Below the pieces are notes generated by a model, which was not told the DNA's origin, did no database searches, and saw only the letters and a list, made by a program, of their open reading frames with translations. The position numbers and the translations under genes were made by a program. A DNA stretch of 64,000 nt from Actinomycetota bacterium. GTDB taxonomy: Bacteria > Actinomycetota > Actinomycetes > Nanopelagicales > Nanopelagicaceae. Where the stretch lies: the NCBI GenBank assembly GCA_009701305.1, contig WLKK01000001.1, positions 140 through 64,139 of the forward strand. Direction: 5' to 3'. Positions 13,845 to 59,573 of this stretch are shown one piece after another (the stretch's first letter is position 1; every line of letters begins with the position of its first letter).

Positions 13845-15032
13845 ATGAAAATAACCAAGATTGAATGCCACGTTCTCTTAGACCCAGAATATGACCCAGC
13901 CGCAACTAGTTCGGCTCAGGATGATCTTGTTGTAGAAGTACATACCGATGAGGGGATTGTTGGCATTGGTGAAACGGATCTAAATCCATGGATCGCGCGG
14001 GAGTGCATTGAGGCACCTGGTACGCACACTATGGATCAAGGTCTTGGTTCTATGTTAATTGGGGAAAACCCATTAGAGATCGAAAAACTTTGGTGGAAGG
14101 CATATCAAGCAACCGCAATGACTGGAAGACGTGGTGCATTAATTAATGCACTCGGTGCAATAGATATGGCGCTTTGGGATATTGCTGGCAAAGCGGCCGA
14201 TAAACCAGTTTGGCAATTATTAGGTGAAAAATCCCGCGAACATCTTGGTGCTTATGCTTCTTTGCAACCCGAGGTTGGATCTTTTGATGCTTACATAACA
14301 TCAATGGTTAAGTGGGCTCACTCTGCAAAAGAGATGGGTTTTCGCGCAGCGAAATTAGAAACAACTTTTTCTGGACCGTATGCAAATATGGGAATCAGAG
14401 AAGATGATGAAAAAATGACTGAAGTTATTAGGGCAGTACGAAATGCGGTAGGTCCAGATTTCACGCTGATGGTGGATGTTCAATATGCATTTGATTCTGT
14501 TGACCGCGCAATAAAGACAATTAACACTTGGCAAGAGTTTGATTTGTTTTTTGTAGAAACCCCACTTTGGGTAGATGATCTTGAAGGATTAGCAAAACTA
14601 GTTGCGGCAACTCCAATAAAGATTGCATCAGGGGAGTGGTTAAGTACACGTTATGAATTTTCTGATTTGATTAAGTATGGAAATGTTGGCGTAGTACAAC
14701 CAGATATTGGTCGAGTTGGTGGATTGTCAGAAGCACGAAATGTTTGCGACATGGCAAAAGCCAATAACAAGATCGTGGTTCCGCATCTTTGGAAAACTGG
14801 AATTTCAGTCGCAGCTGCTGCGCATTTGGCTACCGTGACTCCACATATGCCATTTTTTGAGTTTTTACCACCTGCGTTATGTGAATCACGACTCCGTAAA
14901 GAGTTGGTAGTTGATGAGGTCACCATGGTGGATGGAAAAGTTACGATTCCACAACGGCCTGGCCTTGGAATTGAATTAAACCGCGATGCACTTGAGTTGT
15001 TTAAAGATGCTGCACGAAGGATCAGAGCCTAA
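13845..15032 (+). CDS. Enolase-superfamily enzyme (mandelate racemase/muconate lactonizing family, acid-sugar dehydratase-like)
   Basis: 395 aa with AIDMALWDIAGK, metal ligands MVDVQ / FVETP / ASGEW, and VQPDIGRVGG plus VPHLW. The catalytic set looks intact. Confidence 0.88.
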   Translation: MKITKIECHVLLDPEYDPAATSSAQDDLVVEVHTDEGIVGIGETDLNPWIARECIEAPGTHTMDQGLGSMLIGENPLEIEKLWWKAYQATAMTGRRGALINALGAIDMALWDIAGKAADKPVWQLLGEKSREHLGAYASLQPEVGSFDAYITSMVKWAHSAKEMGFRAAKLETTFSGPYANMGIREDDEKMTEVIRAVRNAVGPDFTLMVDVQYAFDSVDRAIKTINTWQEFDLFFVETPLWVDDLEGLAKLVAATPIKIASGEWLSTRYEFSDLIKYGNVGVVQPDIGRVGGLSEARNVCDMAKANNKIVVPHLWKTGISVAAAAHLATVTPHMPFFEFLPPALCESRLRKELVVDEVTMVDGKVTIPQRPGLGIELNRDALELFKDAARRIRA

Positions 15033-31951: not shown

Positions 31952-32854
31952 ATGAAAGTTGTTGTTCGTGCCCCCGCAAAGATAAATTTGCAATTATCAG
32001 TTGGGCCACTCGGTGAAGATGGATTTCATGAATTAGCGACTGTCTTTCAAGCGATTTCTATCTATGATGAAATAACAATTGAATCTGCAGCAAAAGCAAG
32101 TGGGATTAATTTAACTTTTTCAGGAGATGGCGCTGCAGGTTTACCAGTAGATGATAAAAATCTGGCTTGCCAAGCCACAAAATTATTTGCCAAATATACA
32201 AAAATTGAGTGTGATATTAAAATTTCAATAAAAAAAGGAATCCCAATTGCTGGAGGCATGGCTGGCGGAAGTGCAGATGCAGCAGGAACGCTTGTGGCCC
32301 TTGACGCATTATTTGAGACAGCTCTACGAAAAGATGAGTTGCTTAAACTTGCAGCAAAACTTGGAAGCGATGTTCCTTTTTCATTGATGGGTGGAACAGC
32401 TATTGGTAGTGGCCGTGGAGATCAACTAACGCCAGCATTATGTCGTGGTACTTTTCATTGGGTTTTAGCTTTTTCCTCTCAAGGGCTATCGACCCCTGCG
32501 GTCTATGCCGAATCCGATCGGTTACGCCAATCCCTAGATATTAGAAAACCACGAGTTAGTGAAGAGTTGATGCACGCGCTAAGTGGTGGAGATGCAATTG
32601 GATTAGGAAAAGCTTTAGTTAATGATTTACAACCAGCAGCAATCTCTCTTCGTCCCGCTCTTAAGATGGCGATAGGTGCTGGAATTGAATGCAAAGCGAT
32701 TGGTGCAATAGTTTCTGGATCTGGGCCAACGGTTGCGTTTCTAGCGGTTGATGAGGAGAGTGCGATCGACTTAGCAGTAGCACTTTCTTCCACTGGCGCA
32801 GTCACAAAGATCAACCGAGCCAGCAGCCCAGTGCATGGACCTAAAGTTATCTAG
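31952..32854 (+). CDS. ispE: 4-diphosphocytidyl-2-C-methyl-D-erythritol kinase
   Basis: 300 aa with APAKINLQLSVG and PIAGGMAGGSADAAG (GHMP kinase motif). Confidence 0.95.
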   Translation: MKVVVRAPAKINLQLSVGPLGEDGFHELATVFQAISIYDEITIESAAKASGINLTFSGDGAAGLPVDDKNLACQATKLFAKYTKIECDIKISIKKGIPIAGGMAGGSADAAGTLVALDALFETALRKDELLKLAAKLGSDVPFSLMGGTAIGSGRGDQLTPALCRGTFHWVLAFSSQGLSTPAVYAESDRLRQSLDIRKPRVSEELMHALSGGDAIGLGKALVNDLQPAAISLRPALKMAIGAGIECKAIGAIVSGSGPTVAFLAVDEESAIDLAVALSSTGAVTKINRASSPVHGPKVI

Positions 32855-33987
32855 TAAATCTCAACAGTGTGCTTGTCAATGAAATCCCAGTCATATTCAA
32901 TTCCTAGTCCAACGCCAGTTGGAGCTTGAACATAGCCATCTTTGATTACCAATCCATTTTTTAATCCAAAATTGAAGTCATCAAATGGATACAAAGTTTC
33001 GAAGAATTGGCAATTTGATATTGCAAGCGAAGCATGAAGTTGAACCATCTCAAGTCCATGATAAATAGTTGTATGCAATTCGCATCGAACACCAAAAGCT
33101 TCAGCAAGGTGTGCAGTTTTCATAACAGCGGTTAAGCCACCGCGCCAAGAGACATCGGTTCTGACTATGTCCACAATATCTTCTTTAATATAAAGCGCTG
33201 TTGAATATTGAGCACCTGCTATTACTTCAGTTCCACAGATTGGAATATCTAACTTCTCCCGTAACTTTCTAAGCGTATTAAAATTGACATCTAGAACTGG
33301 TTCTTCCATCCAAAGATAATTTAACCGCTCTAGTTCACGGCCTACTTTTAACGCTTCTTCATAGTTATAAGCAATAACTGAATCTGCCATTAAATTGAAA
33401 TCATCGCCAACTGCTTTTCGGACTGCACGGTAGCAAGCAATATCCTCTTCTACAGTTCCAGGTGGGTGCAGCTTGTAACCTTTATAGCCTTTTGCCTTTG
33501 CAGATAAAGCCTCTGCAACATACTCATCTGGTCCTGGTAAAAACATTGAGCTGACATAAAGTGGAACTTCTTCGCGCGCAGCGCCAAGCATTTTATAAAC
33601 TGGCATTTCAGCAATTTTGCCTTTTATATCCCAGCATGCGTTATCAAAAGGACCATATGCATAAATTGGAACGTGATTCCATTTGCGATCAAAATTTTCA
33701 AACTCTTTTAATGCTTTCTCTGTATCAAAAGGATTTCGACCAATGAAAAATGGCTTAATAGCTGACATGGCTTTACCGGCGATAGTTGCATCAAGTGCGC
33801 CAAAACCAAATGAAGTTCCAGTTACTCCATCAGCAGTTGTTAACGTCACGACTGTGAAATCTGGACGGTTGCCGCCCGGCAACTTGACTCCACGTACTGC
33901 GTCAATCGATTCGCCCTTGTCGCTGCCACGGCAGGCGCGGATCTCTACTTTTTCAATTACTGAATCGCTTTTGGCATTCTTACTCAC
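32851..33987 (-). CDS. Enolase-superfamily enzyme (mandelate racemase/muconate lactonizing family)
   Basis: 378 aa with NACWDIKGK, YKLH, ligands MADSV / MEEP / CGTEV, and VRTDVSWRGG plus CELHT. The catalytic set looks intact. Confidence 0.88.
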   Translation of the reverse strand: MSKNAKSDSVIEKVEIRACRGSDKGESIDAVRGVKLPGGNRPDFTVVTLTTADGVTGTSFGFGALDATIAGKAMSAIKPFFIGRNPFDTEKALKEFENFDRKWNHVPIYAYGPFDNACWDIKGKIAEMPVYKMLGAAREEVPLYVSSMFLPGPDEYVAEALSAKAKGYKGYKLHPPGTVEEDIACYRAVRKAVGDDFNLMADSVIAYNYEEALKVGRELERLNYLWMEEPVLDVNFNTLRKLREKLDIPICGTEVIAGAQYSTALYIKEDIVDIVRTDVSWRGGLTAVMKTAHLAEAFGVRCELHTTIYHGLEMVQLHASLAISNCQFFETLYPFDDFNFGLKNGLVIKDGYVQAPTGVGLGIEYDWDFIDKHTVEIY

Positions 33988-38678: not shown

Positions 38679-39254
38679 ATGAGTTGGCTTGTAGTAGGTC
38701 TTGGTAATCCAGGAAATGAATATTCGGCAACCCGTCACAACATCGGATTTCAGGTTGCTGATTATTTAGCTGCACAAGTTGCTGGAAAATTTAGCAAACA
38801 TAAATCAAAGGCAGAAGTTTTAGAAGGTCGATTTGGCGTGGGAGTTGATGCTCCCAAAATAATTATTGCCAAGCCGCAAACATATATGAATGATTCCGGG
38901 AAATCGGTAGTAGCACTTAGGAACTTTTATCAATTATCCAATTCTCAAATTATTGTCATTCACGATGAATTAGATATTGATTTTGCAAAGATCCGTGTCA
39001 AGCAAGGTGGCGGAGATAATGGACACAACGGGTTGAAAAGTTTGACCCAATCTCTTTCAGGGCCAGATTACTTTCGAGTTCGAGTTGGAATTGGTAGACC
39101 AGTTGGCCATATAGATGCGGCAGATTTTGTATTACAAGGCTTTAGCAATATTGAAAAAAAATCACTGGAAGATCTGATTATCAAAGCCGGAGATGCGGTT
39201 GAATCAGTTATGCGAAATGGGTTAGAGCGCACGCAGCAAGATTTTAATGAATAG
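38679..39254 (+). CDS. pth: Peptidyl-tRNA hydrolase
   Basis: 191 aa with VVGLGNPGNEYSATRHNIGF, MNDSG and GGDNGHNGLKS. Confidence 0.96.
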   Translation: MSWLVVGLGNPGNEYSATRHNIGFQVADYLAAQVAGKFSKHKSKAEVLEGRFGVGVDAPKIIIAKPQTYMNDSGKSVVALRNFYQLSNSQIIVIHDELDIDFAKIRVKQGGGDNGHNGLKSLTQSLSGPDYFRVRVGIGRPVGHIDAADFVLQGFSNIEKKSLEDLIIKAGDAVESVMRNGLERTQQDFNE

Positions 39255-40671
39255 CGCGTTCAACCCACTCTAAATATTTTGTGTATTCAATATTTGCAAT
39301 ATTTTGATTTTCAGTGGTTGCGGTAAAGGAGAGCTTTTCACCTGAGAATTTAAGTGCTAAGACCTCTGGTGCGACTCCACTTGCTGCACTTGCTGCCAAG
39401 ATTGCAGCCCCAATGCTTGAAGAATCAGATTCACTAAAAGAAATTACCTCAGAGCGCAAAATTCGACTTCTAATATCGCGCCACAATTTTGATTGATGGG
39501 ATGCACCGCCAAGGTGAACGGTTGATGGCAACTCACCACTTAGGGATTTAGCTTGATCGATTATATGTCGAGCCGTAAAACCAACTCCGAAAATTACCGC
39601 ATGTGCGATGTCGCCAAATTTACTTTGGTGTGAAAGTCCGGCAAAGAGGGCTCGAATGTCACTGCGCCAAATAGGAGCACGTTCACCGGCAAGGTATGGC
39701 AAAAAGATTTCACTGTGAGCATTACTACTTTCGAGAGATTTAGAGAGCAACTCTTCAGGTGTGGAATTAAAAAGATCTGCAGCCCAAGAGATTGCAGAGC
39801 CACTACTTTGAGTTGGACCAAATATCACCGGGATTGGGGCACAACTTTCAGGAACGGTAGAAAGGTTATGTTTACCTTCACTTAATTTTCTACAAGATAT
39901 TCCAGCGATATCCGAACTTCCAGAGATAACAAATGCGGTGGGTTTTGAAAATACTTCAAGAGCCAACATCCCAGCAAGTGCATCTGACCAACCAATTGCC
40001 ACTGGAATTTCAGCGGGTAGAAATTTATTGCCAACAGAAGTTGCACCAGCAACCTCCCATGGTTTACCAATCGCCGGGATTAATTCATTTGGTAAGCCAA
40101 GACTCTTCCAAGCCTGTGTCGGCTTTAATGTTGTGGCATGAATTAAACCTTTGCTTGACCAATTGTCAGAAGAAAATTGTCCGGTTAAATGGAAAAGTAA
40201 AAAATCTTTTGCTTGCAACAAACGCGAATCTTTTTGTAAAATTTTCGGCTCATGCTCTTTTAACCAGCGAACTTTTGGCAAAATTCCAGAAGGGGCCCAT
40301 GGTAGAGAGAGTCCAAAATCTTTCGCGACATCTGGGATTTCAACGGCAAATAGATCTGCTTCTTTTTGTGAACGCGTATCTTGCCAAGTCATGGCCGGGC
40401 GCAAAGGATTACCAAGCAAATCTGTCACTACTAACGTAGGTGTCTGACCAACAATTCCAACTCCGGTGATTTCGGCTAAATCAATATCAAGTTCAGTTAA
40501 AACCTTAGAGAGCGCAGCCAACCAATCGCGTGGATCTTGCTCTACCCAATTTTCATTTGGACGATGCGTTTCATACCCAGCAGAAGTTCTGGCCAAGACC
40601 AGGCCATCTTGATTGATTACTGTTGCTTTTAGAGCAGAGGTTCCTAAATCAACTCCAAGCCAGATTTGCAT
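39244..40671 (-). CDS. FGGY-family carbohydrate kinase (xylulokinase-like)
   Basis: The N-terminus reads MQIWLGVDLGTSALKATVI and the C-terminal domain contains HLGGASHQSKLWRDI. The track ORF starts at 40737; ATG 40671 gives the canonical N-terminus. The 3' end overlaps pth by 11 nt (convergent). Confidence 0.85.
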   Translation of the reverse strand: MQIWLGVDLGTSALKATVINQDGLVLARTSAGYETHRPNENWVEQDPRDWLAALSKVLTELDIDLAEITGVGIVGQTPTLVVTDLLGNPLRPAMTWQDTRSQKEADLFAVEIPDVAKDFGLSLPWAPSGILPKVRWLKEHEPKILQKDSRLLQAKDFLLFHLTGQFSSDNWSSKGLIHATTLKPTQAWKSLGLPNELIPAIGKPWEVAGATSVGNKFLPAEIPVAIGWSDALAGMLALEVFSKPTAFVISGSSDIAGISCRKLSEGKHNLSTVPESCAPIPVIFGPTQSSGSAISWAADLFNSTPEELLSKSLESSNAHSEIFLPYLAGERAPIWRSDIRALFAGLSHQSKFGDIAHAVIFGVGFTARHIIDQAKSLSGELPSTVHLGGASHQSKLWRDIRSRILRSEVISFSESDSSSIGAAILAASAASGVAPEVLALKFSGEKLSFTATTENQNIANIEYTKYLEWVERAIH

Positions 40672-40694
40672 GGGACTCCCTTTCTGCCTGAGTT

Positions 40695-40706
40695 GAGGGT
40701 ACCCTC
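40695..40706. promoter_or_regulatory. Perfect 12-bp palindrome GAGGGTACCCTC in a divergent promoter region
   Basis: It lies in the 59-bp spacer between the FGGY kinase start (40671) and the DgoD-like gene start (40731). Confidence 0.4.
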
Positions 40707-40730
40707 GCGATTGCAATAGAAGGGGCCAAG

Positions 40731-41843
40731 ATGACAACTATAAAGAAGATCTCAACGTATTTATTGGGGCAAGATCAAATATTTGTAAAAATTGATACTT
40801 CAGAGCCGGGATTATTTGGTTGGGGGAGTGTTGCTTTCGCGGGCCACCACAAATTAATTGCAATTAGTGTTAATGATTACTTAACTGATTTCTTGATCGG
40901 CAAAGAGATAACTGAGATTGAAGATATTTGGCAAACCTCTCAAGTGCAATCATCATGGCGTAATGATCCAGCGCTTAATTGTGCCCTTTCGGCAATTGAT
41001 CAAGCGCTTTGGGACATTAAAGGTAAAGAGGTTGGCAAGTCGGTAGTAGATCTCATCGGCGGGCGAGCTCGTAAAGCGGTTCCGGTATTAATGAAATGCG
41101 AAAAGAATTTAAATTCAGGATTGCTAGATGAGATTGCAAGATTGCAAAACGATGAAATTGAATATTTTTTGATTAATCCAGAGATGGATTCAAAAGCAGT
41201 GACATATGGCAGACAAATTGTTGAAGTTTTTAGTAAATTGCGATCTGAGTTCGGCAATAAAGTACATCTTGCCCATGATTTTGACGGGCGGTTATCACCG
41301 ACAGAAGTTCTTGCAGTTGTTAAACGGCTAGAAGAATTTCACCCATTCTTTTTAGAAGATGTATTTCCTCCTGAGCATATTGATTGGCACCTTGCCATGA
41401 GAATGCAAACAAAGGTCCCAATGGCCACAGGTAAAAGATTTGTAAATCCACATGAATGGCTCAACATAATTCCACAAATGGCAATTGATATATTGCGCTG
41501 CAATATAAGTGCAATTGGTGGATTAAGCCAAGCCTTGAAAGTTGGGCATTACGCCGCTCCAATTAGCATTCGAACTTCATGGTCAGCTGGTGAATTACAA
41601 AGTCCAATAGAGTCGGTAGCCACCGGCCATCTTTCACTCAACCTGCTAAACGCTGGCCCACAAGAATGGCGCCAACCTTCATCGGTAATAACTGATGTGG
41701 TTGGGGGATTACCTGAAATGAAAAACGGATACCTTTATTTCAACGCAAAACCCGGATTTGGTCTAGAAATTTCAGAGCAAAATCTCACCCTATTGAATAA
41801 TTTGCCAATAAATAGAAAGATAACCCACTATGACAACCATTAA
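40731..41843 (+). CDS. DgoD/ManD-like enolase-superfamily protein with substituted catalytic residues
   Basis: 370 aa. The capping-domain motif AIDQALWDIKGKEVGKSVVDLIGG is intact. Barrel positions read AHDFDGRL (D183, D185), FLED (E209), ATGKRF (K235), LRCNISAIGG (N258) and RTSWS (S285). Confidence 0.85.
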   Translation: MTTIKKISTYLLGQDQIFVKIDTSEPGLFGWGSVAFAGHHKLIAISVNDYLTDFLIGKEITEIEDIWQTSQVQSSWRNDPALNCALSAIDQALWDIKGKEVGKSVVDLIGGRARKAVPVLMKCEKNLNSGLLDEIARLQNDEIEYFLINPEMDSKAVTYGRQIVEVFSKLRSEFGNKVHLAHDFDGRLSPTEVLAVVKRLEEFHPFFLEDVFPPEHIDWHLAMRMQTKVPMATGKRFVNPHEWLNIIPQMAIDILRCNISAIGGLSQALKVGHYAAPISIRTSWSAGELQSPIESVATGHLSLNLLNAGPQEWRQPSSVITDVVGGLPEMKNGYLYFNAKPGFGLEISEQNLTLLNNLPINRKITHYDNH

Positions 41844-42687
41844 TAATGTAAATGAGATTCGTAGCGAAGTTGGCGAAGGTCCAAACTGGGATGCAGGGAC
41901 TTCAACAATTTCCTGGGTAGATATTGCCGGAAAGTTATGGTTTGAGCAGAACATTGAAGGTGGTCCAGTCACCACCCATTCAGTACCAGAAGTTATTGGT
42001 GCGATTGTTGGTCGGAAGAAGGGTGGCTATTACGCCGCAACTAAAGAAGGATTTGCTGAATTAAATCCAGATAATGGTTGGAAAATTACCAAGAATTTTC
42101 TAAAAGAAGATGAACGTATGAATGATGCAAAAGTTGATTCTGCTGGAAGATTTTGGGCCGGAAGTTGCACTATGGATATGGTGCCAGGAACCGGCGCTTT
42201 GCATGTCTTATCTGGTGATCTGACCATGAAAACTGTGGCCACGGGAATTACACTTCCAAATGGGTTGGCATGGAGTGCAGATAATTCATATTTTTACCAC
42301 GTAGATAGCATGCAACACGTTCTATCTAGCTATGAAGTAGATTTTGAAAATGCTGAGTTACATAATAAGAAAACTTTAGTTTCATTCCCTGATGATGGAT
42401 CAGTCCCTGACGGAATGTGTATTTCAAACGAAGGTTTATTACTAGTTGCCATGTGGGGCGGTTCACGAATTGAAATTTATGACCAACAGGGTAAAAAGCA
42501 ATCGGTTATAGATATGCCAGTAAAACAACCAAGCTCATGCACTTTTGGTGGCGCAAAGGGAGATCGCCTGATCGTGACTTCAGCTAGAGCATCACTTGGT
42601 GATACTGCTAACGAATTAGATGGTGGTTTGTTTATAGTTGATGGGCTCGGACTTACCGGTGCTCAAAGTGAAAAATTCAACGGTTAG
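41830..42687 (+). CDS. SMP-30/gluconolactonase/LRE-family lactonase
   Basis: 285 aa with GEGPNWD, NDAKVDSAGRFWAG, PNGLAWS and PDGMCI. The start overlaps the upstream gene by 14 nt. Confidence 0.88.
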   Translation: MTTINNVNEIRSEVGEGPNWDAGTSTISWVDIAGKLWFEQNIEGGPVTTHSVPEVIGAIVGRKKGGYYAATKEGFAELNPDNGWKITKNFLKEDERMNDAKVDSAGRFWAGSCTMDMVPGTGALHVLSGDLTMKTVATGITLPNGLAWSADNSYFYHVDSMQHVLSSYEVDFENAELHNKKTLVSFPDDGSVPDGMCISNEGLLLVAMWGGSRIEIYDQQGKKQSVIDMPVKQPSSCTFGGAKGDRLIVTSARASLGDTANELDGGLFIVDGLGLTGAQSEKFNG

Positions 42688-42695
42688 GAGAAATT

Positions 42696-43730
42696 ATGCG
42701 CGCACAATCACGTAATCACTCATGTCGGATCCACGATAATTTCAAAATAGGAAAATTGGCAGCTGTTGTATTAGAAAATGAAAAGTTGCGCATCACAGTT
42801 GCCGCAGGCCGTGGCGCTGATGTAGTTGAATTTTTGCACAAGCCGGATGATTTAGATTTAGTTTGGCTTACACCCAACGGTTTGGTAGACGGCGAAGTTA
42901 ATTACAACTACAACGACCCTCTTGGTGCATTTACTGATGAGTATCCAGGTGGTTGGCAAACAATTTTTCCAAATGGTGGTGCTGCATCTAATTACCAAGG
43001 TGCAGATTTTGGGCAACATGCCGAAATGGCACTTTTGCCATGGGATTTTAAGATTTTGAAAGATACCCCTGAAGAGATTTCCGTTGAATTTTTTGTGTAT
43101 GGTCGGAAAACTCCATTTTTAGTAAAACGAACCATGAGTTTGAAATCCAACTCCACAACTTTAGACATGGTCGAGACAATTGAGAATTTGTCTGATGTAG
43201 AGATTCCGACAATGTGGGGATTCCACTTCACATTTGGCCCACCATTTATGGATGATGATTGCCGAGTGGTACTCCCAGGAAAACCAACTGTGATGCCGCA
43301 CGCCAGTGAGGTATTCGGTAGTTCACGCCGATTAAAGGGAAATGAAAATTTTGCTTGGCCGGTAGGTGTTGGGCCAGATGACAAGCCAGTTGATTTCAGC
43401 AATATTCCACCACGAAATACTCCGACTGAAATGTTGTACCTAAAGGATTTAGAGCAAGGCGAGTATCGAGTCGAATCACCAAACAAAGGTTTAGCCGCAG
43501 TTGTTAAGTGGGATAAAACAAATCATCCATACCTTTGGTTTTGGCAAGAGTTTGGCGCAACTACGGGATATCCATGGTATGGCCGTTATTACAACATTGG
43601 GTTAGAACCATTTTCAAGTCTTCCAACAACAGGTGTAGTTGATTCAGTAAATAATGGAACTGCGCTGATTTTTAAAGGCCGGGAAGTTAAGAGTAATAAA
43701 TTCTCATTTGGCGTTGAAAAGTTAAAGTAA
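42696..43730 (+). CDS. Aldose-1-epimerase-fold protein (DUF4432-like)
   Basis: 344 aa, predicted all-beta, with YPGGWQTIFPNGG and GQHAEMALLPWDF. The family call is from memory and is tentative. Confidence 0.55.
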   Translation: MRAQSRNHSCRIHDNFKIGKLAAVVLENEKLRITVAAGRGADVVEFLHKPDDLDLVWLTPNGLVDGEVNYNYNDPLGAFTDEYPGGWQTIFPNGGAASNYQGADFGQHAEMALLPWDFKILKDTPEEISVEFFVYGRKTPFLVKRTMSLKSNSTTLDMVETIENLSDVEIPTMWGFHFTFGPPFMDDDCRVVLPGKPTVMPHASEVFGSSRRLKGNENFAWPVGVGPDDKPVDFSNIPPRNTPTEMLYLKDLEQGEYRVESPNKGLAAVVKWDKTNHPYLWFWQEFGATTGYPWYGRYYNIGLEPFSSLPTTGVVDSVNNGTALIFKGREVKSNKFSFGVEKLK

Positions 43731-43748
43731 AAATTAGTAAGGAGTGAA

Positions 43749-44543
43749 ATGGATTTTGTTGGAAAAGTAGTAATAGTTACCGGTGCCGCAAAAGGTATGG
43801 GTTTTGGCGCTGCAGTTAAATTCGCAAACGAAGGTGCAAGTGTGGGACTTGTGGATAATGATGCTGCGACGCTTGCTACTGTTGAGAAGAACTTTTTAAC
43901 ATCAGGAAAGAAAGTAAAAGCTTTTCCAACTGATGTGAGTAATGCAAAAGATGTTGAGAAGATGGTTGCCGGGGTTATTGCTGAATTTGGAGCGCTAGAT
44001 GTAATTGCAAATTGCGCTGGAATCCAAACTTATGGCGATGCAGTGGAGACAACCGAAGAGATTTGGGATAAAACCCTTGATGTAAATGTTAAATCTATGT
44101 TTTTGACTGCAAAGTATGGTGTTCCGCATATGCGCAAGCGGGGCGGAGGCGCAATTGTAAATATTTCTTCAGTTCAGTCCATAGGTGCTCAAAAACAAGT
44201 TGTTGCTTATTCCACTTCTAAGGGTGCAATCAACGCATTAACGCGAGCGATGGCAATGGATTTTGCAGTGGATAAAATTCGAGTTAATTCAGTACTTCCA
44301 GGTTCGGTTGATACGCCTTTGCTGCGTTTTGCTGCCGAAACTCACAAAGGAAATAAAACAGTGGATGAAGTTGTGGCTGAATGGGGAAGTTCACATCCGA
44401 TAGGTCGGATGGGAACTATCGAAGATATCGCCGAACTTATTGTATTTCTAGCGAGTGATAGAGCACTATTTATTACTGGTTCAGATTATGTAATAGATGG
44501 TGGCTTGATGGCACAAATTCCAGTAATACTTCCAGAAAAATAA
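43749..44543 (+). CDS. SDR family oxidoreductase
   Basis: 264 aa with VTGAAKGMGFG, NCAG, YSTSKGA and PGSVDTP. Confidence 0.9.
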   Translation: MDFVGKVVIVTGAAKGMGFGAAVKFANEGASVGLVDNDAATLATVEKNFLTSGKKVKAFPTDVSNAKDVEKMVAGVIAEFGALDVIANCAGIQTYGDAVETTEEIWDKTLDVNVKSMFLTAKYGVPHMRKRGGGAIVNISSVQSIGAQKQVVAYSTSKGAINALTRAMAMDFAVDKIRVNSVLPGSVDTPLLRFAAETHKGNKTVDEVVAEWGSSHPIGRMGTIEDIAELIVFLASDRALFITGSDYVIDGGLMAQIPVILPEK

Positions 44544-44549
44544 TTCAAC

Positions 44550-47261
44550 TCAGCCGGTATTACGTAAACCCGCTGCAATGCCGTTGATGGTAAGAAGTAA
44601 TGCTCGACGCAGAGTTGCCTCATCGCTGTTGTCACCTTGGCGAACTCTTTGCAGTAGTGAGACTTGCAGAAGTTGAAGTGGGCGAAGGTAAGCATCACGA
44701 ACTTGCAAAGTTTGTGAAAGAATTGGCTGATCACTTAGCAGTTCGCTCTTTCCAGTCAAAAGTAAAATTTCCGCGACGGTTAGATCAAATTCAGCCCGAA
44801 TTTCAGCTAAGAAATGATGAAGCTCAGGGGTAACCAATGTTTTTACATAATGTTCCGCGGTTGCAAGATCTGTTTTTACCAAAGTCATTTCGACATTGCT
44901 GATAAATGTCCGGAAAAAATGCCATTCAGTAAGCATGTGCGCCAACACTTCAGATTTACCTGCTTCACGCGCTGCTTTTAATCCAGTTCCAACACCGAAC
45001 CAACCTGGAACAATTTGGCGCGATTGAGTCCAACCAAATACCCAAGGAATTGCCCGCAATCCACTTAAGTCAGCGCTTGAATCTGGGCGTCTTGATGGTC
45101 GCGAACCTAGGAAAAGATCTCCTAGTTGTTCTACTGGGGTTGATTCAAAGAAATATTGGGGAAGATCAGGATGATCAGTCAAGGTACGGTACTGCGTCAT
45201 TGCAGCACCACTAACTAGATCCATACATGAATCCCATTTTGCTAAATCTTTAGGATTTTGCCGCGGCGCACGATTTAAAACTGTTGCTTCTAAAGATGCC
45301 GCCAGCATTAACTCCACATTTTCACGTGCAAGTGATGGAAGGGAGTATTTATCGCTGATGACTTCCCCTTGTTCAGTCATTTTAATCTCACCATCAACTG
45401 AACCCCAAGGAAGTGCAATTAATGCGTCATAAGTTGGCCCACCGCCACGACCTACAGAACCACCCCGGCCATGGAATATTCGAAGTGCAATCCCATGTTT
45501 CATGGCGACATCACGCAGGCGTCTTTGTGCTCGGTGAATTTCCCATTGGCTAGTTGTAATTCCAGCATCTTTGTTTGAATCTGAGTATCCAAGCATTACT
45601 TCCTGAACATTTCCGCGTAGCTCAAGAATCTGTCGGTATTCCGGAACTGTAAAAAGTGATTCCAAAATTTTGTCCGCAGATTGCAACTCAGCAACAGTTT
45701 CGAGAAGTGGAACATATCCAATTAAAGAATAAGGCTCCTCACTATTTAAATTTAATAATCCTGCTTGTTTGCCGAGAACTACCGCGGCCAATAAATCATC
45801 AGCACCTTTTGTCATTGAAACGATGTAACTCTCGATCGCTTCATTGCCATATCGTTCGATAATCTCACCTATTGCATCAAAAGTTGCCAAAGTTTGTTTA
45901 CCAAGTTCATCAAGTTCATCGACTTCATTTTTAGAATTTCCTGTTAATGGGCGAGGGTTTGCTAATTCTGCTGCTAATAGATTTAGCCGTTCGGCACTAT
46001 TCAATTCTAGATAATTCTTGGTTCCAACACTGCTAAATAATTGATTTAAAAGATGATGATGGCGATCAGAATGCTCGCGCACATCAAGGGTTGCATGGGT
46101 TAATCCAAATGCTGAAACATTTCGGATCATTCGATCAAGTTCACCATTTGCAATTAATTCACCTTTATGGCTCATGAGTGAATCGCGCATCACCAGTAGA
46201 TCATCAAGTAATTCTTGAGTATTTGCATAGTCGCGGCCTGGCTCATGATCTTGTAGGAAAGCATGGCGCTTTTGAGTAAGCAACAATTTGTGGCGAATGG
46301 CAGTGGCTTTTAATCGATATGGTTCTTCTACGTTGATCCGCCTAAACCGTTCTTCAATTTCGGGCAATATTCGTAAATCTGCATCCACAGAGGCAAGTAG
46401 TTCGGCAGAGGCTCCAGCAATACGCGTAGAAACCGAAAGTGATTGACGAAGTGCATCTAATCTTTCGAGAGTTACGCGGATGCTATGACCAACTTGGGTG
46501 GTGATGGCGTTTTTAGTTACTTCAGCGGTTACGTGTGGATTTCCATCTCTATCTCCACCGATCCAACTTCCAAAAGAAAGTGGACGTGCGGTCGCATCAA
46601 GAGTTATTCCAAATTTATTTAATTCAAAAGCAAAATCTTCAAGAACTTGGGAAACAGTAGATCTGCTTAAATCATCTAAGTAGTAAAGAGCATTCATTGC
46701 TTCATCAATTGGTTCTGGACGTTCTAAACGCAACTCATCTGTCTGCCATAACAGTTCAATAGCCTCAGCAAGTCTGCGATTATTCTCTGGCGCATTTTTC
46801 GCATCAAGTAAAACTGCAATTGTTGCCAGTTTGCTCAAAATAGATCTGCGTGCAGCTTCAGTCGGATGTGCTGTGAATACTGGCCGAACTGAAAGAGATG
46901 CAACTGCCCTAGCCAATTCATCTCGTGAAATTTTTTGATCGGCGATGCGATGTGATGCACGTTGCAACCAAGATTCACCACTTCCGCGTTCTTGAGCTAA
47001 TGTGCGAGCGCGGTGAACTTGTTCCGCAACGTTTGCTAAGTGAAAGTAAGCGTTAAAAGCTCTTACTAATCTGATGCTGTCGTCAACATTAACTTTGGCA
47101 AGCAAATTTGCACCTGCCGGTGAATCTTCACGGACTGCTTGGCGAACTTGTTCAACCAGATCTAGGAGTGATTGCCCTTCTTGACGGGCGATTGTTTCTC
47201 CCAATAAATCGCCTAAGCGGCGAACATCAGCGCGTAACTCCGCGCCATCACTGGAAGGCAT
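44550..47261 (-). CDS. ppc: Phosphoenolpyruvate carboxylase
   Basis: 903 aa with VFTAHPTE, GYSDSNKDAG, FHGRGGSVGRGGGP and the C-terminal GLRNTG. Confidence 0.97.
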   Translation of the reverse strand: MPSSDGAELRADVRRLGDLLGETIARQEGQSLLDLVEQVRQAVREDSPAGANLLAKVNVDDSIRLVRAFNAYFHLANVAEQVHRARTLAQERGSGESWLQRASHRIADQKISRDELARAVASLSVRPVFTAHPTEAARRSILSKLATIAVLLDAKNAPENNRRLAEAIELLWQTDELRLERPEPIDEAMNALYYLDDLSRSTVSQVLEDFAFELNKFGITLDATARPLSFGSWIGGDRDGNPHVTAEVTKNAITTQVGHSIRVTLERLDALRQSLSVSTRIAGASAELLASVDADLRILPEIEERFRRINVEEPYRLKATAIRHKLLLTQKRHAFLQDHEPGRDYANTQELLDDLLVMRDSLMSHKGELIANGELDRMIRNVSAFGLTHATLDVREHSDRHHHLLNQLFSSVGTKNYLELNSAERLNLLAAELANPRPLTGNSKNEVDELDELGKQTLATFDAIGEIIERYGNEAIESYIVSMTKGADDLLAAVVLGKQAGLLNLNSEEPYSLIGYVPLLETVAELQSADKILESLFTVPEYRQILELRGNVQEVMLGYSDSNKDAGITTSQWEIHRAQRRLRDVAMKHGIALRIFHGRGGSVGRGGGPTYDALIALPWGSVDGEIKMTEQGEVISDKYSLPSLARENVELMLAASLEATVLNRAPRQNPKDLAKWDSCMDLVSGAAMTQYRTLTDHPDLPQYFFESTPVEQLGDLFLGSRPSRRPDSSADLSGLRAIPWVFGWTQSRQIVPGWFGVGTGLKAAREAGKSEVLAHMLTEWHFFRTFISNVEMTLVKTDLATAEHYVKTLVTPELHHFLAEIRAEFDLTVAEILLLTGKSELLSDQPILSQTLQVRDAYLRPLQLLQVSLLQRVRQGDNSDEATLRRALLLTINGIAAGLRNTG

Positions 47262-52195: not shown

Positions 52196-53488
<1,293 letters not shown>

Positions 53489-57942: not shown

Positions 57943-58692
57943 CTAAATTCCTAAAACTTGCCCATTAATTTGATTTGAAGTCGACTCTGCTAAAAAAGCA
58001 ACTGCTCGCGCAATGTCCATTGTCGTGACTGCTTCGGTACTTTTGAGAGAGGCACGGCGCGCTAATTCTTCCTTTGCGCCGTGGCCCATGTGTTTCAAGA
58101 AGTTCTGATCATTTTCGTAAAAGAGGTTGGACTCAACAGTTGAAGGTGATACAGAATTGCTAGTGATTCCATATTTCGCAAAAGAGATCGCCGCACTTTT
58201 TCCAATTGAATGTTGTGCTGCTTTTGCAGCTTGATAATGCGAAGTAAATTCACTGGCGCCGGCACCGAGTGCTGAAACAATATTAACGATTCTGCCAAAT
58301 TTTTGCTGCTTCATAAATGGAACACAGTTTTGAATAAATAGAAAAGTCCCCATTACATGGACATTAAACATGCGGGTTATTTCCTCATGAGAAATATCCA
58401 TTATGGGTTTAATTTGGCAGTAGCCTGCGTTGTTAACCAGCAAATCTATTCTTCCCCATTGTGCAATGACTTCATTGACGCAATGAGCTACGTCAGTCGG
58501 AATTGAAACATCACCTACAACTCCAATAGTTTGTTTGGATTGTGGATCTATTAGTGAAATAGTTTCAGCAACACGTTCTGGGTTGAGATCTTGAATTGCC
58601 ACTTTGTACCCGAGTTCGATCAGATGAGATGCAATCCCACGACCAATTCCACTTCCTGATCCAGTTACGATGGCAATTCGGTCTGTAGTCAC
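57943..58692 (-). CDS. SDR family oxidoreductase
   Basis: 249 aa with VTGSGSGIGRG, NNAG and YQAAKAA. Confidence 0.9.
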   Translation of the reverse strand: MTTDRIAIVTGSGSGIGRGIASHLIELGYKVAIQDLNPERVAETISLIDPQSKQTIGVVGDVSIPTDVAHCVNEVIAQWGRIDLLVNNAGYCQIKPIMDISHEEITRMFNVHVMGTFLFIQNCVPFMKQQKFGRIVNIVSALGAGASEFTSHYQAAKAAQHSIGKSAAISFAKYGITSNSVSPSTVESNLFYENDQNFLKHMGHGAKEELARRASLKSTEAVTTMDIARAVAFLAESTSNQINGQVLGI

Positions 58693-59573
58693 TATATTCT
58701 CTTCTCATCTTGTAATTTAAGAATAATTTCGTGCATAAAATTAGATGCGGCCGGAACTTGATCGGCTGATAAGTGTTCAAGAGCAATGTATTTGTTGAGT
58801 GCGAATTTATCTGCTTTAAACACATAATCACTCCAATCGAAAATTCCCTCGCCAACTGGCACTTCAGTAATGCGAAGGACCATTTGTGACTCAACGATGA
58901 AATCTTTTGCATGAGCTGTACCCATACGAGAGCCTGAAACAGCAATCATTTCATCGATCAATTTAGGAGTGTCATACATGTAATCATGGGTAACTATATT
59001 TGTCGGGTCAAATCCCAAACGAAGTGATTTTGAGGGGATGTGATCGAAGATTCTCTTGATTGTTTTTGGATCACGAACGGTGGAAAGAACATGAGGTTTG
59101 ACTACTAAGTACATGCCCTGATCTTCAGCGACTGGGATAATTTGCTGGAGCGAATCTATATAGCGCTCTAGTGAGGCCTCGCTGTGATTCTCCGGTACCG
59201 GATACCAAGCAGATATAGGGGAGTTTGATCCTGCTCCGGTGACGACAACATTTGAACCAAGTGCTCTAGCAACCTTAAATGAATCTTTGACAAGTTGGAT
59301 CGAATCTTTTCGCAATGAGTCATTAAATGTGCAGAGCGAGGCCCAATAGCCCCAATTAGAAATAGGTTCTATTCCATTCTCGCGAAGTAATTCACCGGCA
59401 CGTTTAACAGCATCGAAGTCTGTTTCATTGGGTTTGCGGATTGATTTGCCATCTCCCAAACCGAAGTGGCAGATAACTCCCTCGATTCCCATCCCGCGAA
59501 GCTTTTTAGCTAGATCAGAATCGATCTCAGCAGGATCGGTAGTAAACGCAGTTAGCATGAGTGCGACTTTCAT
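58692..59573 (-). CDS. Sugar phosphate isomerase/epimerase (xylose isomerase-like TIM barrel)
   Basis: 293 aa with an alternating beta/alpha pattern and conserved acidic/His positions (VVKPHV, GFDPTN, HAKD, IALEH). It has a 1-nt overlap with the downstream SDR. Confidence 0.75.
   Translation of the reverse strand: MKVALMLTAFTTDPAEIDSDLAKKLRGMGIEGVICHFGLGDGKSIRKPNETDFDAVKRAGELLRENGIEPISNWGYWASLCTFNDSLRKDSIQLVKDSFKVARALGSNVVVTGAGSNSPISAWYPVPENHSEASLERYIDSLQQIIPVAEDQGMYLVVKPHVLSTVRDPKTIKRIFDHIPSKSLRLGFDPTNIVTHDYMYDTPKLIDEMIAVSGSRMGTAHAKDFIVESQMVLRITEVPVGEGIFDWSDYVFKADKFALNKYIALEHLSADQVPAASNFMHEIILKLQDEKRI

Follow-up and report, generated by a model that had tools for sequence, protein, structure and literature searches.

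What does an enolase-superfamily protein do once most of the residues behind the family's chemistry have been replaced? The question is raised by an open reading frame (ORF) at 40731..41843 (+) of a 64,000-nucleotide (nt) stretch of a Nanopelagicaceae genome (contig WLKK01000001.1), the whole of which is called the window here. The ORF encodes 370 amino acids (aa) without a frameshift, and the capping-domain motif AIDQALWDIKGK...LIGG is present, both as described in the initial annotation, which was made from the sequence of the window alone. In the enolase superfamily, universal conservation is generally ascribed to the three metal ligands alone, and Mg-assisted enolate stabilisation is seen as the common mechanistic thread. 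The clade to which the ORF belongs has lost one Mg-binding residue and every known catalytic group, and the protein probably has a different function. The explanation that we favour, tentatively, is a metal-free ligand-binding pseudoenzyme serving the adjacent dehydrogenase, lactonase and kinase genes.

Pfam analysis of the ManD-like ORF detected the domains MR_MLE_N (E 2.5e-17) and MR_MLE_C (E 6e-31). A confident AlphaFold2 (AF2) model (pLDDT 92.5, pTM 0.91) contains the capping domain and all barrel strands, which lie at residues 117-123, 145-148, 179-183, 207-209, 231-233 and onward, and the protein has the enolase-superfamily fold of a capping domain and a (β/α)7β barrel. Its closest relatives by sequence and structure are ManD-subgroup proteins. 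The top sequence matches in the PDB (phmmer) are the ManD-subgroup entries 3t6c, 3tw9 and 4ihc (E ~1e-73), whereas DgoD-type entries match at 1e-39 or weaker, and the top 50 Foldseek hits are all ManD-subgroup structures (gluconate and mannonate dehydratases and uncharacterised ManD-annotated homologues), with a template modelling (TM) score of ~0.9. A neighbour-joining tree rooted on DgoD, which carries no bootstrap support, nests the ORF within the ManD subgroup on a long branch, away from DgoD. The curated family models all score below their cut-offs, with 198.6 bits against 550 for the NCBIfam ManD equivalog NF043051, 188.2 against 430 for the PRK15072 subfamily, and 168 against 311 for the DgoD family PRK14017. 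The ORF is a ManD-subgroup descendant by sequence, fold and tree, and not a functional member of that subgroup. DgoD family membership is ruled out by the PDB matches, the NCBIfam scores and the tree, and the ‘DgoD-type’ label of the initial annotation gives way to the ManD subgroup on this evidence and on that of Foldseek. Source names in the 90%-identity metagenome cluster of the protein read ‘mannonate dehydratase’, a label that is very probably wrong for this clade.

Because the ORF is ManD-derived, the relevant catalytic set consists of the Asp/Glu/Glu ligands, the Tyr-Arg dyad and His212, and not the His285-Asp258 dyad. According to Rakus et al. 2007, ManD reportedly uses Asp210, Glu236 and Glu262 as Mg ligands, a Tyr159-Arg147 dyad as the base and His212 as the acid, Arg147 being placed at the end of β2 and Tyr159 in the loop that follows. 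In the barrel region, the PDB alignment has an offset of 27 residues (query 163-350 versus 2qjj 190-377), which equates D183 with D210, D185 with H212, E209 with E236 and K235 with E262. Of the six catalytic residues of canonical ManDs, the ORF lacks four.

The losses were mapped against 117 canonical ManD-type sequences, with a column counted as conserved when at least 90% of them agree. The segment 41169..41201 (+), where β2 ends and a shortened β2-α2 loop follows, carries Leu147 in place of the dyad Arg, which is 100% conserved in the canonical set, and has lost a segment of ~20 aa containing the catalytic Tyr (..YG..), whose Y-G columns are 99-100% conserved. The segment D183-F-D185-G186 (41277..41288, +) corresponds to canonical D-x-H-E; it keeps the first Mg ligand (D183, GAT 41277-79), while the general-acid His, present in 100% of the canonical sequences, is Asp (D185, GAC 41283-85) and the Glu is Gly. 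The second Mg ligand, E209 in the FLED motif (GAA, 41355..41357, +), is retained. At the end of β5, K235-R236 (41433..41438, +; K235, AAA 41433-35) stands where canonical ManDs have Glu, the third Mg ligand, followed by Leu. Further along the barrel, R256-C-N258 (41496..41504, +) retains an Arg that is invariant in a 120-sequence alignment (A2) and has Asn (AAT 41502-04) in place of the subgroup His (Asp in DgoD), S285-A286-G287 (41583..41591, +; S285, TCA 41583-85) replaces the conserved H-G-P after β7, and E312 at β8 (41664..41666, +), at least 90% conserved in A2, is retained. The residues kept are thus D183, E209, R256 and E312. The conserved ManD C-terminal tail W..R..DG..RP is absent. 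Over the full comparison, 54 of 124 ManD-conserved columns differ in the ORF (44%), and the ManD-specific features found missing are the Tyr-Arg dyad, the D-x-H general acid, the C-terminal tail and a score above the curated cut-offs.

The superfamily hallmark of Asp, Glu or Asn at the ends of β3, β4 and β5 is broken at β5, where Lys235 is found in all 22 family sequences that cover the site. Among 210 full-length relatives, position 235 is Glu in 205 and Lys in none, and position 185 is His in 194 and Asp in none; since no relative shows Lys235 or Asp185, the pattern is not a matter of chance. E. coli K-12 DgoD (D183/H185/E209/E235/D258/H285) aligns column for column with the six positions of the ORF, bearing out the one-to-one numbering of the initial annotation, and the DgoD acid/base residues (the His285-Asp258 dyad and His185) are likewise absent, the ORF having N258, S285 and D185. 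All four named replacements are encoded where the initial annotation had placed them, and no canonical Glu or His is found at these positions in the structure-level alignment. Its count of four changed positions out of six survives for ManD, with a partly different set of residues, and its claim that most barrel catalytic residues are lost proved too modest, as the Tyr loop, Arg147 and the C-terminal tail have gone as well.

Two of the replacements carry less weight than they had been given. The metagenome-assembled genome (MAG) of orthologue L001 also encodes a 410-aa ManD paralogue (L009:7977-9209) in which the Arg, a GGYG loop, D-x-H, the two Glu ligands and the C-terminal tail are all present; the genes around it encode an ABC sugar-binding protein, an FGGY kinase and SDRs. 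This paralogue has RLN (Asn for His258) and GSYAG (without His285) but matches canonical ManDs at the other residues checked; because it has both changes, neither N258 nor the missing H285 says much by itself. Active sites of ManDs seem to be diversifying in acI genomes. Alignment of other representative clusters suggests that degenerate members are not unique to this clade: P0180, P0237, P0248, P0133 and P0159, near the ManD and DgoD groups, have at least one metal ligand missing in the alignment, where conservation or misalignment is possible, and P0180, for instance, has D, Q, G and Q at 183/185/209/235.

A scan of GTDB species representatives recovered seven orthologues at 87-95% identity, all of them in MAGs of Nanopelagicaceae or of other actinobacteria, whose source lakes include Mendota, Baikal and Kiruna. 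All seven share one gene order: L25, pth, FGGY kinase (-), ManD-like gene, SMP-30/gluconolactonase-family (SGL) lactonase, DUF4432, SDR, and phosphoenolpyruvate carboxylase (-). The reading frame is intact in every recovered orthologue, in independent assemblies; five of them reach their stop at 357 aa, and contig ends truncate the other two. The 90%-identity metagenome cluster comprises 509 members, and exact copies of the window protein lie on 23 contigs. D185, K235, N258 and S285 are kept in the seven species-level genomes and in ~15 further metagenome sequences, while L147, N149, D183, D185, G186, E209, K235, R236, R256, N258, S285, A286, G287 and E312 are invariant in 21-23 family sequences, as is K122. 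Codons vary synonymously across genomes at eight of these sites (L147, D185, G186, R256, N258, S285, A286 and G287). Pairwise Nei-Gojobori estimates over six genomes gave a mean dN/dS of 0.071 for the ManD-like gene, at dS 0.23-1.04, compared with 0.036 for pth, 0.094 for the kinase, 0.039 for the lactonase, 0.041 for DUF4432 and 0.030 for the SDR. The gene is maintained under strong purifying selection and is not decaying, so the orthologue and selection checks suggested with the initial annotation both point to a maintained variant. As judged from its sequence, it would belong to the operational class of pseudoenzymes, which lack the essential residues of their family and are under purifying selection.

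These data leave little room for a decaying pseudogene or an assembly artefact, which we regard as barely credible. The catalytic residues are lost, and so is the stop codon of the window copy, as such an account would have it, but the frames are intact in orthologues from independent assemblies, the exact sequence recurs on those 23 contigs, dN/dS is 0.07 with dS reaching 1.0, and the AF2 model is confident. A decaying pseudogene in particular is ruled out by the intact orthologue frames and the dN/dS value.

Conservation within the family is not uniform. Positions that are conserved in ManDs and replaced here vary less within the family than positions elsewhere (33% versus 50%, p = 0.04). 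The longest invariant stretches fall within residues 181-300, at the barrel mouth, and the outer helices (121-180 and 300-357) vary most. This distribution bears on the proposal that the protein is a non-catalytic structural or regulatory partner which does not use the old pocket, whether as a subunit of oligomers of an active ManD paralogue or as a scaffold for neighbouring enzymes. The ManD paralogue in the MAG of L001, canonical at the residues checked, would suit such a role, as would the many new surface charges of the ORF (P53D, G79D, G294E and G125K) and the six putative mannonate dehydratases reported in an acI-C genome (PMC5301498). However, there is no active paralogue in the operon, and it is the barrel mouth that is best conserved and the outer helices that are most variable; we consider a structural partner distinctly improbable.

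The genomic surroundings of canonical ManDs point to the origin of the gene. Among canonical relatives the closest is P0004, a protein of an Actinomycetota MAG that has all catalytic residues and whose gene lies divergently to those for SGL, DUF4432 and an MFS transporter. ManDs with the full set of canonical motifs adjoin SGL and DUF4432 in L080 and in a second such locus, L086, where the ManD is fully canonical and a PfkB kinase and a DeoC-type aldolase follow downstream. Because the SGL and DUF4432 proteins of the window share 44% and 51% identity with their L080 counterparts, the three-gene dehydratase-SGL-DUF4432 module is taken to be ancestral, and because canonical relatives adjoin the same lactonase-DUF4432 pair, the gene is taken to derive from a working dehydratase. 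Canonical ManDs of different phyla are 55-79% identical to one another and just 35-42% identical to the ORF. A relative-rate test, which assumes that P0004 is the closer sister, counted 139 versus 10 unique changes, with the ORF accelerated; the neighbouring DUF4432 shows no acceleration.

Among 1.84 billion cluster representatives, no intermediates were found, only fragments of the same family and then nothing above 40% identity. One candidate, P0003 (47% identity, on an ENA contig of 1844 nt), was rejected: it joins a variant N-terminus of ~70 residues to a canonical P0005-type body at IEDIWQT and is most likely a metagenome assembly chimera. Separately, an actinobacterial metagenome scaffold (L081:6753-10405) carries three tandem MR_MLE genes, of which two are ManD-type, with 39-40% identity to the ORF.

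These comparisons depict a working dehydratase that was rebuilt in a single burst and has been held fixed since. The ancestor was a ManD-type acid-sugar dehydratase in a dehydratase-lactonase-DUF4432 sugar-oxidation module. A burst of change in one freshwater Nanopelagicaceae (acI) clade then stripped the dehydratase machinery, deleting the Tyr-base loop and the C-terminal tail and replacing Arg with Leu, His with Asp, the third-ligand Glu with Lys, and H-G-P with S-A-G. The capping domain and barrel were left intact, and strong purifying selection, tightest around the barrel mouth, has held the new state thereafter.

The module also gives the best grounds for supposing that the ORF is still an Mg-dependent acid-sugar dehydratase with a rewired site, in which Asp183 and Glu209, together with Asp185 or a carbamylated Lys235, would hold the metal and some other residue would serve as the base. 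The operon position after an SDR and a lactonase calls for a dehydratase, canonical relatives fill that role in the same module, and the ORF still has D183, E209, R256 and E312. In the amidohydrolase superfamily, carbamyl-Lys and Glu can stand in for each other as metal ligands, and RuBisCO combines carbamyl-Lys with Asp and Glu. An unchanged reaction should nevertheless keep its catalytic residues, whereas 44% of the subgroup-conserved columns have changed and the Tyr loop has been deleted; Glu235 is near-universal among the 210 relatives and Lys unrepresented, and the ORF scores far under every dehydratase family cut-off. We consider a rewired dehydratase improbable, and, with Glu235, the His acid and the Tyr-Arg base all missing, Mg-dependent dehydration by the ORF is very unlikely.

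The metal-free ligand-binding pseudoenzyme is the reading that we prefer for the remodelled site. From the ancestry, losses, conservation and selection described above, we infer that the protein would no longer bind Mg or carry out Mg-dependent dehydration. The Lys235 ammonium would fill the former Mg site, pairing with Asp183 and Glu209, and a putative salt bridge to these two residues probably holds it there; this is the simplest arrangement, because Lys235 lies at the end of β5, exactly at the former metal-ligand position. The more open polar pocket (D183, D185, E209, K235, R236, R256 and E312, and also K122) would bind a carboxylate-type ligand. The neighbouring SDR, lactonase, DUF4432 protein and kinase would make an aldonolactone and then an aldonate, and the ligand bound in the pocket is probably drawn from this pathway, the candidates being an aldonate, a lactone or a keto-deoxy acid.

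Several points weigh against this reading. The operon slot after a dehydrogenase and a lactonase, where a dehydratase is expected, raises the prior for an enzyme, and the proteins encoded in operons of streamlined genomes are mostly enzymes. There is no other ManD-subgroup dehydratase gene in the 64-kb window, where the MR-type paralogues and enolase occur in unrelated contexts. Two of the three Mg ligands remain, with Arg256 and Glu312, and the place of the third ligand could be taken by Asp185 or by a carbamylated Lys235. Identity within the family is at least 82%, a shallow depth that limits the power of site-wise tests, and the evidence for a burst involves both the sister assumption made for P0004 and a tree that lacks bootstrap support.

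A close second is metal-independent catalysis, possible though on balance unlikely, in which Lys235 would assume the electrophilic role of Mg2+, through enolate electrostatics or by attacking C2 of a 2-keto-3-deoxy acid to give a Schiff base. The new acid/base would be Asp185, Lys122 or His39, and the reaction would be something other than ManD dehydration, for example aldol cleavage, isomerisation or lactone chemistry. The conservation peak at the barrel mouth, the invariance of the new residues K235, R236, D185 and K122, and a dN/dS of 0.07 within a catabolic operon of a streamlined genome are all consistent with such an enzyme. In ManD, the carboxylate and 2-keto oxygen of the product reportedly chelate the metal (Rakus 2007), so Lys235 would lie beside C2. 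Yet the ORF lacks both active-site lids (the C-terminal tail and the 150-180s loop), most of its new residues are smaller or neutral (Y→S, H→S, H→N, R→L, Q→G), and we know of no enolase-superfamily precedent for metal-independent catalysis. A literature search for non-catalytic or metal-ligand-lacking enolase-superfamily members or clades, conducted with limited literature access, returned nothing relevant. The stronger claim, that this is the first metal-independent enzyme of the superfamily, with Lys235 acting as an enolate-stabilising cation or as a Schiff-base nucleophile on the C2 carbonyl, is less probable again; the Schiff-base option would amount to a switch like that between class II and class I aldolases. 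The earlier suggestion that the gene is retained for a non-dehydratase role holds as to its maintenance and the loss of the dehydratase machinery.

The end of the gene had been read as evidence of a different kind. The 14-nt overlap with the lactonase gene is real, and the translational coupling drawn from it is not upheld. A TTG codon at 41802..41804 (+) occupies the position of the orthologue TAG stop, a private stop loss that lengthens the gene by 13 codons and so gives rise to the overlap; TAG is the stop in all five orthologues (357 aa) whose contigs extend to the gene end, 13 codons before the end of the window copy. The private 13-residue C-terminal extension, LPINRKITHYDNH, overlaps the lactonase start, is unrelated to the missing ManD tail, and has last residues modelled with pLDDT <50. 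Because the overlap is private to this genome, conserved translational coupling is rejected, and the orthologues stopping 13 codons earlier rule it out for the ManD-like gene and the lactonase.

The conserved neighbours downstream are the SGL lactonase (41830..42687, +), the DUF4432 protein (42696..43730, +; ‘galactose mutarotase-like’ in some sources) and the SDR dehydrogenase (43749..44543, +), which scores above the cut-off of the NCBIfam glucose 1-dehydrogenase subfamily. PDB matches of the kinase and the lactonase are generic; for DUF4432, there was no sequence match in the PDB, and a literature search gave nothing relevant. The closest DUF4432 relatives outside the clade (52-57% identity; L084:626-8017 and L085:672-8017) follow two GH38 α-mannosidase genes and a GNAT acetyltransferase gene, a hint that DUF4432 proteins of this type may act on mannose-type sugars.

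Upstream, the FGGY (xylulokinase-like) sugar kinase gene (39244..40671, -) is divergent. As listed, its ORF begins at TTG 40737 and overlaps the start codon of the ManD-like gene; since orthologues carry a stop at codon 11 of this listed ORF, the true start is probably ATG 40669-40671 and the 5' overlap spurious. The resulting 59-nt divergent intergenic region (40672..40730) is presumably the site of promoters. A promoter and terminator scan of 40400-44800 gave a site count not above that of shuffled sequence, with no site inside the 59-nt gap.

The window contains four enolase-superfamily genes, counting glycolytic enolase (52196-53488, +), 8 kb downstream. The other two (13845..15032, + and 32851..33987, -) both have MR_MLE_N and MR_MLE_C domains and encode generic MR-type acid-sugar dehydratase homologues. 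Both retain the third-ligand Glu (ASGEW, CGTEV), the β6 Asp (VQPDIG, VRTDVS) and the β7 His (VPHLW, CELHT), so the initial annotation was right that these paralogues keep their catalytic residues. The sugar cluster is flanked by housekeeping genes, with glmU, prs, L25 and pth upstream and ppc, mfd, mazG and eno downstream. A gene for an AP_endonuc_2 (xylose-isomerase-like TIM barrel) protein and another SDR gene adjoin at 58692-59573 (-) and 57943-58692 (-), and the AP_endonuc_2 domain type also accompanies the canonical ManD modules of L080 and L086.

The acI Actinobacteria are the dominant freshwater bacterioplankton, with streamlined genomes. Metabolic reconstructions of acI that count the ORF as the dehydratase step of sugar oxidation are probably wrong. 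Missing one ligand and all acid/base groups at a dN/dS of 0.07, the clade offers a clean natural test of the scaffold without its chemistry, and if metal-independent chemistry at Lys235 were true, a clade within the most abundant freshwater bacteria would possess a new reaction of hexose or aldonate catabolism.

Among known systems, the nearest is the ManD subgroup, exemplified by ManD from Novosphingobium aromaticivorans (2QJJ) and the D-gluconate dehydratases from Salmonella (3TW9/3TWB) and Pantoea (3T6C). The ORF resembles these proteins in its two-domain fold (TM ~0.9), in its best sequence matches (35-41% identity), in the first two Mg ligands (D183 and E209), R256 at β6, E312 at β8 and the capping-domain motifs, and it shares with canonical ManD loci the association with an SGL lactonase and DUF4432. 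Unlike them, it has Lys as the third ligand, Asp as the acid, Leu147 and S-A-G, and both the Tyr loop and the C-terminal tail are deleted. With E. coli DgoD, of the mandelate racemase subgroup, it has in common a similar length, a short β2-α2 loop, the same six-position numbering, and Asn149, Gly186 and Arg236; the two differ in that identity is 27-29%, depending on the alignment, and His185, Glu235 and the His285-Asp258 dyad are absent from the ORF. The ManD subgroup is also said to include ‘no-activity’ members, which in Wichelecki et al. 2014 reportedly dehydrated none of the acid sugars tested. Those members reportedly keep the Mg ligands and the Tyr-Arg/His residues, unlike the ORF, whose inactivity as a dehydratase is predictable from its sequence because an Mg ligand and the Tyr-Arg/His residues are lost. 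Beyond the superfamily, metal-independent or non-catalytic offshoots of barrel enzymes, such as the LigI lactonase of the amidohydrolase superfamily and the HisZ pseudoenzyme, offer an analogy: although they belong to different superfamilies, in these proteins, as in the ORF, the fold is kept, canonical metal or catalytic residues are lost, and the protein is maintained by selection.

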